In this document: positions 36,244 through 56,812 of the stretch, piece after piece
How the letters are laid out: each line of letters opens with the position of its first letter
Position numbering within the stretch: the stretch's first letter is position 1
Virus record (IMG/VR): IMGVR_UViG_3300036851_000176
Location: 64,001 to 128,000 of that record
Source: a virus
Length of the DNA: 64,000 nt
Strand: one strand, 5' to 3'
Translations under genes and position numbers: made by a program
The notes under the pieces: generated by a model
Databases searched by the model: none
Seen by the model: the letters and a program-made list of their open reading frames with translations, nothing else
What the model was told of the DNA's origin: nothing

Positions 36244-36641
36244 TGGGCGGTCTATCCATCCCCGACCGGATTCTCAGTGAGGATGCCACCGAAAGGTGGT
36301 GTCCTTGCTGTGAGACCTGGAAGTTGATGGACCGCCAGCACTTCTATGTCGCCTCGAACACGAAAGCAGGATTTCGTCGGACGTGCAAGGCGTGCCAGAA
36401 ATTGAAAGATGCACGCAATCGACATCTCGAATACAACGGGTATGTCTACATGAATAGAGTCCGGCCGTGGCTGCGCGCTCTCGTCGAGAAACTCGGCTTC
36501 ACCGGTGCAGCCGAAGCCCTCGGCGTCTGGAAAGGCCAATTGGCCGGATGGATGAGCAAGCGCCGCAGACGTATCCAGCGGCGCAACGCGGCCCGCATTC
36601 TCCGCGTGTGCGGAGAGCATGGGATTCGCATCGCTGTTTAG
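36243..36641 (+). CDS. Zn-finger/HTH DNA-binding protein
   Basis: CPCC..CKAC, GAAEALGV. Confidence 0.65.
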   Translation: MGGLSIPDRILSEDATERWCPCCETWKLMDRQHFYVASNTKAGFRRTCKACQKLKDARNRHLEYNGYVYMNRVRPWLRALVEKLGFTGAAEALGVWKGQLAGWMSKRRRRIQRRNAARILRVCGEHGIRIAV

Positions 36642-37408: not shown

Positions 37409-37471
37409 TTAGACCCCTGGAAACCAGGGGGTATTCGGCTGATGCTGTTGCGATGTCATCTCGATCTTCAT
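37409..37471 (-). CDS. putative leader peptide MKIEMTSQQHQPNTPWFPGV of the Pro/Trp/Phe/Gln/His/Asn tRNA operon
   Basis: ATG 10 nt after -10 box; residues match downstream tRNAs. Confidence 0.75.
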   Translation of the reverse strand: MKIEMTSQQHQPNTPWFPGV

Positions 37472-37511: not shown

Positions 37512-37661
37512 CCGAGGCCGCTTGCTCAACCGCCAGTTTCCCAAGCGGCTCAGCGAAGCGGCCCAACACAAGGCCGATATTCCCAGTCGCCGCTGACACG
37601 GCTCCTGACTGCCTCGGATCCGGTGTCAGCCGGAGAGCCGAGCGGGCGCTTGCGCCTCGGA
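37512..37661 (-). ncRNA. unassigned structured RNA
   Basis: Closing CCGAGGC/GCCTCGG; GCTGACAC/GTGTCAGC and GCCGCTT/AAGCGGC stems. Confidence 0.4.
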
Positions 37662-37963: not shown

Positions 37964-38283
37964 TGGAGCCGCCGGGTATCGAACCCGGGTCCGTCTCGTC
38001 CGTACAAACAGATCTTCTAGCAGCTTCGGGGTGGTATACGCCACCTCCACCAGGGCAGACCTTTGGTCTCCGCGTCACCGTTGAATGGGGTCGGTGTCCC
38101 GTCCTACTGGTACATCATCCCGGACTTCTGTTCCTACCGGCCGGGGCGGCGCTCGTGGCCGTTAAGCCGCGAGAGGAAGCACGTATGCTTCGTCGTTTCG
38201 TTTGCCCTCCGGGCCGGTGCGGTAGGCCGCAACCCGCTGCGATCTCCTTGCCGTTTTCGAGGCGTCGAATCCAATTCGGCCCC
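37964..38283 (-). ncRNA. ssrA: tmRNA
   Basis: 5' GGGGCCGAATTGGATTCGAC, 3' GACCCGGGTTCGATACCCGGCGGCTCCA (G3-U70), tag frame ...NDEAYVLPLAA*. Confidence 0.93.
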
Positions 38284-38912: not shown

Positions 38913-38913
38913 G

Positions 38914-38998
38914 CGGCGGGTGAGGGGATCGAACCCCCACAGGTGTTACCCCATCACCGGGTTCAAGCCGGATAAGCACGCCAGCCATGCGACCCGCC
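38914..38998 (-). tRNA. tRNA-Ser(TGA)
   Basis: CCGG-CTTGAAC-CCGG, long V arm, G73. Confidence 0.85.
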
Positions 38999-39070
38999 GA
39001 GTGGACGATGTAACGCATTTTGCGTCACTCTGTCCATTCAAACCATTCCGCAATCGGAACAATTATGAAA

Positions 39071-39151
39071 TGCGCACCCCGGGATTCGAACCCGGACGCC
39101 TCGCGGCACCAGCCTCTCAGACTGGCGTGTCTACCGTTCCACCAGGCGCGC
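39071..39151 (-). tRNA. tRNA-Leu(GAG)
   Basis: CCAGT-CTGAGAG-GCTGG, long V arm. Confidence 0.9.
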
Positions 39152-39187
39152 AAGTGTCAAGTTTTATGGCAAGAAAACTTGACAAAG

Positions 39188-39271
39188 CGGAAGGCCGAGG
39201 TCACGATCCCCACGCCTTTCGGCGCGATCCGGCTAGCAACCGGTCCCCGGGCCATCCCAGGTTGACCTTCC
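39188..39271 (-). tRNA. tRNA-Ser(GCT)
   Basis: CCGG-TTGCTAG-CCGG, long V arm. Confidence 0.85.
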
Positions 39272-39275
39272 GTAG

Positions 39276-39349
39276 TCCCCACGCCAGGATTCGAACCTGG
39301 ATCCCTCCGGTTTGAGCGGAGTGCGTCTGCCGGATTGCGCCACGCGGGG
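39276..39349 (-). tRNA. tRNA-Leu(CAA), short variable arm
   Basis: CTCCG-CTCAAAC-CGGAG. Confidence 0.88.
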
Positions 39350-39359
39350 CTATGTCGAG

Positions 39360-39446
39360 TACGGGAGGCGGGAGTCGAACCCGCACGTCCTTTCGGACAC
39401 CGATTTCTGAGACCGGCGCGTCTACCGAGATTCCAGCCACTCCCGT
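39360..39446 (-). tRNA. tRNA-Leu(CAG)
   Basis: CCGGT-CTCAGAA-ATCGG. Confidence 0.9.
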
Positions 39447-39454
39447 ATGTCGAG

Positions 39455-39527
39455 AGCCGATGGCAGGAATCGAACCTGCGTGGACGGGGTTGCAATCCGT
39501 CGCCTGGGACCACTCGGCCACATCGGC
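39455..39527 (-). tRNA. tRNA-Cys(GCA)
   Basis: loop TTGCAAC, U73. Confidence 0.9.
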
Positions 39528-39528
39528 T

Positions 39529-39602
39529 TGGTGGGCGCCCTAGGATTTGCACCTAGTCCTGCGGGGTTACGGCCCGGAATGCTCTAACTACACCAGACGC
39601 CC
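39529..39602 (-). tRNA. tRNA-Tyr(GTA), short variable arm
   Basis: CGGG-CCGTAAC-CCCG, encoded ACCA. Confidence 0.8.
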
Positions 39603-39609
39603 AAGTAGG

Positions 39610-39666
39610 TCAGTCCGCCGAGGCGGACTGGCTAAGACTTAGGCAATACAACTGGTGCGCGAACAT
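39610..39666 (-). CDS. putative leader peptide MFAHQLYCLSLSQSASAD of the Tyr/Cys/Leu/Ser tRNA operon
   Basis: ATG 10 nt after -10 box; LYCLSLS core; stop 7 nt before tRNA-Tyr. Confidence 0.75.
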   Translation of the reverse strand: MFAHQLYCLSLSQSASAD

Positions 39667-39676
39667 AACGTGCCGG

Positions 39677-39705
39677 AGTATAGACGAAGATTGCTGATTT
39701 CGCAA
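39677..39705 (-). promoter_or_regulatory. promoter, tRNA operon 3
   Basis: TTGCGA-N17-TATACT. Confidence 0.75.
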
Positions 39706-39928
39706 GTATCTTCTCTACTTGAGCAATCAGAGGTACTCGACGTGAAGAGTTCCGCCGAAGGGGAGGGTGCCATCGAAGAGGAACATTCCAAGTTCGTCAC
39801 CTTGGTAGGCCAGAATCGAGGGTATTTTCCTCGCGATCTTCTTGCTCCAGCGCCCACGCCGAGATGATCTTTCCAAGAGGAGGATCCGGAAAGAGGGGAC
39901 GACCCAGTTCGTCTCGATCGTCGGGCAC

Positions 39929-41499: not shown

Positions 41500-41572
41500 T
41501 GGACCGGGGAGCGATCGAATCTCCCGCCTCTCCTTTATCAGAGGAGCGCTCTGCCGTCTGAGCTACCAGTCC
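41500..41572 (-). tRNA. tRNA-Ile(GAT)
   Basis: CTCCT-CTGATAA-AGGAG. Confidence 0.88.
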
Positions 41573-41593
41573 ATGTTCCGTGCTGGACTGCGG

Positions 41594-41689
41594 CTATGCG
41601 ACGGTAATGCGCGTCGCGGCCAGCACGGTGCGGACGACGGTTCTCGTCGTTCGCTTGAGTTTCCTCTGTGCTGTCCGCGTGAAGTTCAT
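41594..41689 (-). CDS. putative leader peptide MNFTRTAQRKLKRTTRTVVRTVLAATRITVA of the Ile/Val/Lys/Arg/Ala/Thr tRNA operon
   Basis: Leaderless ATG 7 nt after -10; 25 of 31 residues are I/V/K/R/A/T. Confidence 0.8.
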   Translation of the reverse strand: MNFTRTAQRKLKRTTRTVVRTVLAATRITVA

Positions 41690-42682: not shown

Positions 42683-42755
42683 TAGCGGGTACGGGAGTCG
42701 AACCCGCTGTCTTCGGCTTATGAGGCCGCTGTGGAAGCCGTTTCACTCCCCCGCT
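42683..42755 (-). tRNA. tRNA-Met(CAT)
   Basis: CGGC-CTCATAA-GCCG. Confidence 0.85.
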
Positions 42756-42761
42756 CGTCGG

Positions 42762-42789
42762 AGTATACATGCCGGAGATGGCATGTCAA
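42762..42789 (-). promoter_or_regulatory. promoter, tRNA operon 1
   Basis: TTGACA-N16-TATACT; ACATGCC/GGCATGT inverted repeat spans the spacer. Confidence 0.8.
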
Positions 42790-56504: not shown

Positions 56505-56812
56505 TCCTCTTCCCTCTTCTCTAGTCGCTTGATCTCGGCCCAGATGATGCCGCGCTGCCTAGGCGTCTTGGCTTTGTCGTACTTCTTCATCAACTCAGTT
56601 CGACGATCGATCAGCTTCTTCTGCTCGTCGTGCATCAGGCCGACAGGGAACTTGCCACGGCACTTCGAGCAGACGATGTACATCTCCCACAACACTCCCG
56701 TAGGCTTCCGCCGCTCGACCTGAATGAGCGCCCCGGCTGCATTGCAGTTCGGGCAGTCATCCGTGCCGAGTTTCTCTACGGTTGGGTTCGCCACAGGTCT
56801 TGAGGAGACCAT
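56486..56812 (-). CDS. Zn-ribbon protein
   Basis: CPNC..CSKC; leaderless start after TTGACT..TAACCT. Confidence 0.65.
   Translation of the reverse strand: MVSSRPVANPTVEKLGTDDCPNCNAAGALIQVERRKPTGVLWEMYIVCSKCRGKFPVGLMHDEQKKLIDRRTELMKKYDKAKTPRQRGIIWAEIKRLEKREEEWNQSL

Follow-up and report, generated by a model that had tools for sequence, protein, structure and literature searches.

Our analysis points to a short open reading frame (ORF), lying between a promoter and a block of tRNA genes in this virus, as a probable sensor that is read by the ribosome. We put the probability at about 0.5 that this frame, leader ORF C, is translated, nearly leaderless and one of three sensor ORFs that head tRNA blocks B, C and D. 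We give the same even odds to the wider arrangement, in which four blocks together make up a complete 20-amino-acid tRNA set and three of them are controlled by leaderless sensor ORFs, each composed of the amino acids that its own block serves, so that they would be expressed on demand and with no canonical terminator. The trigger would be slow reading of the codons of a block, caused for example by host tRNA-cleaving defences or by codon mismatch. The case for sensor leaders depends on the set of three and not on leader C alone.

The window, that is, the whole 64,000-nt stretch of DNA analysed, corresponds to bases 64001-128000 of one 146,625-bp virus record with 59% G+C. All tRNA genes (about 28) and a tmRNA gene lie on the minus strand between positions 36641 and 42755, and promoters divide the tRNA genes into four blocks. 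Block A consists of a tRNA with a CAT anticodon, beginning at the 7th nucleotide after its -10 element, followed, after a 285-nt structured spacer, by Glu, Glu, Asp, Gly and Gly; block B of Ile, Val, Arg, Arg, Ala, Lys, Arg and Thr; block C of Tyr, Cys, Leu, Leu, a Ser-like element, Leu and Ser; and block D of Pro, Trp, Phe, Gln, His and Asn. Written as amino acids, the blocks read M,E,D,G / I,V,R,A,K,T / Y,C,L,S / P,W,F,Q,H,N, each of the 20 being present once. An ATG-started ORF directly follows the promoter in blocks B, C and D. Sister leader ORF B (41594-41689, minus strand) has 31 codons, with its ATG at the 8th nucleotide after the -10 element, and sister leader ORF D (37409-37471, minus strand) has 20 codons, with its ATG at the 11th. 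No ORF was found after the promoter of block A, the sole block of this kind; the spacer of that promoter is filled by a palindrome, ACATGCC-N6-GGCATGT (42766-42785, minus strand), which may be an operator. Elsewhere in the genome, outside the window, four perfect hairpins of 9-12 bp are clustered at G000:C1 133230-134281, and three of them are closed by AGCGG...CCGCT.

The minus strand at block C reads, in order, promoter C, 10 nt, the ATG, leader ORF C, 7 nt and tRNA-Tyr. The elements listed in a preliminary description of this locus were found in place, namely a TTGCGA-N17-TATACT promoter before the ORF, a set of Leu (TTG, CTA, CTT), Ser (AGT, AGC, TCC, TCG), TAT and TGC codons within it, a perfect palindrome over the last codons, and 7 nt between the stop and tRNA-Tyr. 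Promoter C (39677-39705) is of sigma-70 type, with the -35 element TTGCGA at 39705-39700, a 17-nt spacer and the -10 element TATACT at 39682-39677; this -10 has the TANNNT form common to the other promoters of the array and to the promoters of leaderless genes. Leader ORF C (39610-39666) starts at ATG 39666-39664, the 11th nucleotide after the -10, runs for 18 codons (MFAHQLYCLSLSQSASAD) and stops at TGA 39612-39610. It is preceded by no Shine-Dalgarno sequence and fills almost the whole 67-nt leader. Codons 6-12 (39631-39651), TTG TAT TGC CTA AGT CTT AGC, form a tract of cognate codons, L-Y-C-L-S-L-S, that contains the palindrome CTAAG-T-CTTAG; two further Ser codons lie at 39627-39625 and 39621-39619. 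The spacer between the stop codon and tRNA-Tyr occupies 39603-39609.

The end of the frame is covered by junction hairpin C (39611-39630, minus strand), a perfect 9-bp inverted repeat over codons 13-19, the stop included, with arms CAGTCCGCC (39630-39622) and GGCGGACTG (39619-39611) separated by 2 nt; as RNA it is effectively an 8-bp stem with a CUCG loop. Its predicted stability is -16.9 kcal/mol (z = -4.97), none of 200 shuffled sequences was equally stable, and only about 13 perfect hairpins with a stem of at least 9 bp occur in the whole 146.6-kb genome. Hairpin C thus exceeds chance expectation. The leader-tRNA hairpins of block B (41567-41590, minus strand) and block C are both closed by CAGTCC...GGACTG, a stem-base pair that occurs three times in the whole genome. 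In block B the first 6 bases of tRNA-Ile serve as the 3' arm of the hairpin, and its 5' arm repeats the 3' acceptor strand of the same tRNA. An imperfect inverted repeat with 15-nt arms (87% complementary; 39694-39730, minus strand) overlaps the -35 element of promoter C, and hairpins here and at promoter D (37519-37560, minus strand) adjoin or overlap the -35; they may serve as operators or terminate the units before them.

Block C itself was examined with two gene finders. The order Tyr-Cys-Leu-Leu-Ser-Leu-Ser given in the preliminary description was not confirmed as a whole: ARAGORN calls five of the seven genes, one Leu gene was detected by Rfam only, and the first Ser was called by neither tool. 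tRNA-Tyr(GTA) (39529-39602) and tRNA-Cys(GCA) (39454-39527) are ARAGORN calls. They are followed by tRNA-Leu(CAG) (39360-39446), the Rfam-only gene, of class II with a score of 41 bits, and by a tRNA with the anticodon CAA, Leu by its anticodon (39275-39349). Next comes a putative tRNA-like element with a GCU anticodon loop (39188-39271), read by eye, which has a long extra arm, a 7-bp acceptor stem and an aberrant T-loop, AUCGUGA. Neither ARAGORN nor Rfam called this element, even at lax thresholds, and it may represent an unusual or a decayed tRNA-Ser. The block continues with the called genes tRNA-Leu(GAG) (39070-39152) and tRNA-Ser(TGA) (38913-38998), the latter being its last gene; all lie on the minus strand. 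Two of these tRNAs are unusual in form. The CAA tRNA is of class I and has a C1-G72 pair, which is atypical for a bacterial Leu tRNA, and tRNA-Tyr has no long extra arm, the T-loop UGCAAAU and an encoded CCA, which is atypical for a bacterial Tyr tRNA. A perfect 11-bp hairpin (39155-39184) separates the Ser-like element from tRNA-Leu(GAG); a TTGACA in the 3' arm of this hairpin lies 3 nt upstream of the tRNA.

Whether leader ORF C could be translated was judged from the other genes of the phage. Among 16 minus-strand matches to a TTGACA-like/TANNNT promoter, seven have an ATG or GTG at the 7th-10th nucleotide after the -10. These seven starts open ORFs of 62-322 amino acids with a GC3 of 0.66-0.90, as do only 7% of random positions. 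The corresponding protein genes start on the minus strand at window positions 56812, 53996, 44733 and 11061, and at G000:C1 131779, 130890 and 56530, behind TTGACA or TTGACT, a spacer of 16-18 nt and TANNNT. By its sequence, the phage, with at least seven such genes, clearly appears to use leaderless mRNAs. The tRNA at 42755 starts at the 7th nucleotide after its -10 and the tmRNA at 38283 at the 8th. Because these two genes and the leaderless genes show such spacing after the -10, the transcription start site (TSS) of leader C is predicted at 39669-39670 (minus strand), 3-4 nt 5' of the ATG; with their ATG at the 11th nucleotide, leaders C and D would therefore have a 5' untranslated region of 3-4 nt and not of 0. 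Pooled over leaders B, C and D, the GC content by codon position is 0.49/0.49/0.75, which is the coding pattern of this phage (P for GC3 = 0.003). Taken together, these features make translation of leader ORF C plausible. Leaderless leader peptides are known in Actinobacteria, for instance that of ilvB (PMC5784534), and there are leaderless Cys short ORFs on which stalling ribosomes keep an RNA duplex from forming (10.1101/834739). There are homologues in phages of Microbacterium and Streptomyces, as well as in a contig labelled Gaiella; these homologues, the leaderless genes and the TANNNT promoters suggest that the host is probably of a high-GC, actinobacterial type.

One feature of an attenuator leader is an ORF between the promoter and the regulated genes, and leader ORF C lies between the -10 and tRNA-Tyr; another is enrichment in codons tied to the regulated genes, and this enrichment was also observed. 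In leader C, L, Y, C and S make up 9 of 17 residues. The p-value of this match was 0.007-0.013 under binomial models, 0.008 among 631 small ATG ORFs and 0.014 against all open six-frame windows of the genome, or 0.002 if all four residues were required; 74 of the 4845 possible sets of four amino acids do equally well (p = 0.015). Of the open six-frame windows of the genome, a fraction of 1.2e-4 contain a run of seven cognate residues out of seven, as in the tract. Taken alone, the composition of leader C is modestly beyond chance, and its p-value is weakened further because LSLS is a single palindromic event (CTAAG-T-CTTAG): counted once, it leaves roughly 7/15 and an estimated p near 0.06. 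Against the open six-frame windows of the genome, leader B, with 25 of 30 residues cognate, reached p = 4.6e-5, and leader D, with 10 of 19, p = 4.7e-3; leader D holds all six amino acids of block D, and with that condition its p-value was 1.9e-4. Each leader fits its own block only, the off-diagonal p-values all being above 0.3. When all ORFs within 260 nt upstream of any block were scanned, leaders B, C and D took ranks 1-3. Their joint match is 44 of 66 residues; when the amino acids were partitioned 4/6/4/6 at random 300,000 times, the highest value obtained was 43 (p < 3.3e-6).

The codons of the leader had been described as nearly colinear with the tRNA order, as running against the GC3 bias and as a sampling of isoacceptors. 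For the given composition, colinearity of LYCLSLS with the genes did not reach significance (p = 0.06, or 0.19 when the uncalled Ser was left out and 0.14 when all nine cognate residues were counted), and it is absent from the sister leaders (p = 0.97 for D and 0.999 for B). Nor does the leader depart from the GC3 bias: its GC content by codon position is 0.50/0.44/0.78, the last value being like that of phage coding DNA, and only four codons of its core end in A or T. Five of the seven tract codons are rare in the phage, as measured by their share of the synonym family (TTG 0.11, TAT 0.21, CTA 0.04, AGT 0.08 and CTT 0.12). The sampling of isoacceptors was borne out in part. TTG, CTT, TAT, TGC and TCG can be read by called tRNAs of block C, but AGT and AGC require the uncalled Ser(GCU)-like element and CTA has no reader in the block, as none of its three Leu tRNAs reads this codon under standard wobble.

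A frame with such a composition might also arise by accident. The region would then be a promoter followed by the structured 5' leader of a tRNA precursor, with a hairpin that serves stability, pausing or processing, and the frame would be meaningless. On its own leader C deviates from chance only at p 0.01-0.015, a 5-bp palindrome suffices to generate the LSLS repeat, the locus has neither a Shine-Dalgarno sequence nor a terminator tail, the order of the codons is not significant and distant relatives have no such ORFs. We nevertheless regard a chance frame as fairly unlikely, though a serious rival reading of leader C by itself, since leaders B and D are equally placed and fit their own blocks, to a joint extent that random partitions never reach, and since the three outrank all other upstream ORFs, with the ATG of leader C at the spacing of leaderless genes and a coding-like GC3. 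The last two properties would equally suit a micro-protein that acts through its peptide and not through the act of being translated. This is scarcely credible, because the peptides of B, C and D are mutually dissimilar, their common trait being the match to the neighbouring tRNAs, and the 18-residue peptide of leader C has no recognisable motif.

The above findings suggested a model in which leader ORF C senses the supply of the tRNAs encoded behind it; in this model we infer translation, the TSS, stalling and, above all, the output step. Host RNA polymerase would start at the predicted TSS, 3-4 nt before the ATG, and a 70S ribosome would load at the 5' end and read the 18 codons. Nine of these specify Leu, Tyr, Cys or Ser, mostly by rare codons, and these are the amino acids served by the downstream tRNAs. 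If charged cognate tRNAs were scarce, the ribosome would be expected to linger on the tract. With its A site at about codon 10 or later it would cover the 5' arm of hairpin C, and the polymerase would continue into tRNA-Tyr and the remainder of block C. With a good supply the ribosome would finish and depart, the hairpin would form and output would be lowered by termination or pausing. That hairpin termination specifically is the output of the sensor ORF we consider clearly less probable than the sensor ORF itself.

Hairpin C is not a canonical attenuator, since it has neither a U-tract nor a significant alternative helix. Directly after it we found ACCUACUU and no U-tract; a terminator scan did not list it, and the few canonical terminators detected in the genome included none in the leaders. 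No competing antiterminator helix was seen in the fold of leader C, which apart from the hairpin showed weak pairings only (whole-leader z = -1.03). The preliminary description had proposed that ribosome position could govern termination or RNase P access. In folds with a 27-nt ribosome footprint, the hairpin persisted while the A site lay at codons 2-9, about half of it was lost at codon 10, and none was left from codon 11 onwards. Stalls at S10, L11, S12, S14 and S16 would therefore open it, and stalls at L6, Y7, C8 and L9 would leave it in place. A ribosome that reads through also melts the hairpin, so that the sign of the response is not fixed by geometry, and the leader could act like pyrBI.

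Two other outputs would keep the sensor ORF and replace the role of the hairpin. In one of them, resembling tnaC, the C-rich leader would be a loading site for Rho after the departure of the ribosome, and a ribosome detained on hungry codons would mask it and let the block be transcribed to its end. The C/G ratio of the leaders is 1.22-1.35 (1.25 over the 67 nt of leader C), as compared with 0.91 for the strand, and 80-nt windows that begin within leaders D and C or shortly before them are among the most C-over-G-skewed of the array. Canonical intrinsic terminators are scarce in the genome, the ORF occupies nearly the entire leader, and all cognate codons would count under this mechanism and not just codons 10-16. 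A 67-nt leader with 20 nt locked in a hairpin, however, offers Rho little room to load, the skew is only slight, the top windows do not include leader B, the tRNA downstream is highly structured and the hairpin would be left without a role; on balance an output through Rho seems unlikely to us. The second would act on tRNA maturation, the free leader pairing with the 5' acceptor strand and D arm of tRNA-Tyr so as to block folding or RNase P, and a stalled ribosome preventing this. RNAfold gave a probability of 0.00 for the acceptor stem of tRNA-Tyr behind a free leader C, about 0.95 with a ribosome over the cognate tract (A site at codons 5-13) and 0.82 at codon 14, and the joint fold of leader and tRNA gained 9.5 kcal/mol over the separate folds. 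Adjoining tRNA-Ile, leader B repeats 7 nt of the 3' acceptor strand of this tRNA, and the mycobacterial Cys short ORFs likewise block a duplex (10.1101/834739). Masking of tRNA-Tyr proved to be non-specific, though: leader C placed before other tRNAs also gave 0.00 in 11 of 22 cases, 28% of shuffled leaders gave 0.05 or less, the gain in folding energy ranked only 3rd of 22 natural controls, and the leader-tRNA duplex test gave p = 0.35. Pairing with tRNA-Tyr was set aside because these controls indicate that most GC-rich leaders fold in this way. Leader D holds nothing comparable, and just the first tRNA of the block would be controlled, so that we consider a maturation output very improbable.

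Close relatives were sought by DNA and protein searches in a phage collection, through the neighbouring proteins in viral contigs, and with tRNA-Tyr patterns in viral as well as metagenome contigs. The phage, viral-contig, metagenome and protein collections yielded no relative with this array, and a neighbouring 128-amino-acid protein is an orphan among 5.8 billion proteins. The hairpin had one exact match in the viral contigs (L001), which was judged to be chance because it lies inside an unrelated coding region without tRNAs. Distant phages that share an 878-amino-acid protein (L024/L027/L028, L054, L051, and L056 from G003) have tRNA arrays without codon-matched leaders, and no comparable leader was detected in four distant phage arrays. 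For the MotA-cassette partner protein, no tRNA arrays lie near its relatives, which comprise L058-L061 and 80 viral loci. In L058 (a 157-kb JGI contig), L060 and L061 the partner is 47-60% identical and an FtsH-like protease adjoins the cassette, with no tRNA genes. As the cassette relatives lack tRNA genes at the syntenic position, the array of this phage looks like a lineage-specific insertion. Streptomyces phage Karimac was considered for comparison and rejected, its tRNAs being scattered among genes. In Cellulophaga phage phi38:1 (L142, NC_021796; 35253-35360), gp066 ends 162 nt before a Lys-Ile-Gly-Asp-Thr-Val-Arg block, and its last 24 residues, after an internal Met, hold all seven amino acids of that block (17/24). 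Our literature search found no published leader-peptide control of tRNA genes.

The leaders of the E. coli ilvGMEDA, ilvBN, thr, leu and his operons are multivalent leader-peptide transcription attenuators of amino-acid operons. Leader C resembles them in having a short ORF between promoter and regulated genes, several cognate and often rare codons, an RNA hairpin that lies across the end of the ORF or behind it, and the ribosome as the proposed sensor. It differs from them in that it precedes tRNA genes and not biosynthetic genes, in that it lacks a U-tract terminator, antiterminator or pause helices and a Shine-Dalgarno sequence, and in that its ORF extends across the hairpin, whereas theirs end before it. 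The pyrBI leader of E. coli, which responds to UTP by way of polymerase pausing and possesses a true terminator, shares this last geometry: its ORF reads through the regulatory hairpin, and a close-following ribosome suppresses the hairpin. Unlike our model of leader C, the pyrBI geometry would give the opposite sign for hungry codons upstream of the hairpin. The tna operon is controlled through tnaC by Rho, with a specific arrest peptide and a long rut-containing spacer. There, as in the Rho output considered here, a ribosome detained near the stop of a short leader ORF masks RNA that would, if left free, terminate transcription, whereas the spacer of leader C to the tRNA, at 7 nt, is unlike the long rut spacer.

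Two further cases are actinobacterial. The Corynebacterium ilvB leader, likewise from a high-GC host lineage, has its start codon at a mapped TSS and controls a biosynthetic operon (PMC5784534); leader C differs in its regulated genes and in a TSS that is predicted and lies 3-4 nt before the ATG. The leaderless polycysteine short ORFs of mycobacteria, the 'Cys ribulon', offer a sensory short ORF on which a stalled ribosome blocks a duplex, and they have in common with the present array several independent short ORFs and, in our model, control at the level of the operon (10.1101/834739). They sense one amino acid and control translation by freeing a ribosome-binding site (10.1101/834739), whereas leader C would sense several amino acids and nothing downstream of it is translated. 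What follows leader C is a tRNA gene, which offers no ribosome-binding site to free, unlike in the mycobacterial Cys type.

The mini-gene before block C is thus probably a ribosome-read sensor of tRNA supply. The purpose of phage tRNA genes and the timing of their expression are debated, codon compensation and escape from tRNA-targeting defences being the main ideas (PMC10264068). If our reading is true, a sensor before each tRNA block would allow phages to gauge decoding speed and to respond with the matching tRNAs. Reporters, and nucleases directed at single tRNAs, for example VapC4 for tRNA-Cys (PMC13096801), allow a direct test of the idea. Leader-peptide attenuation would then extend from amino-acid supply to tRNA supply, and the present case would add a form that is leaderless and has no terminator, in a phage whose host is probably of the high-GC, actinobacterial type.
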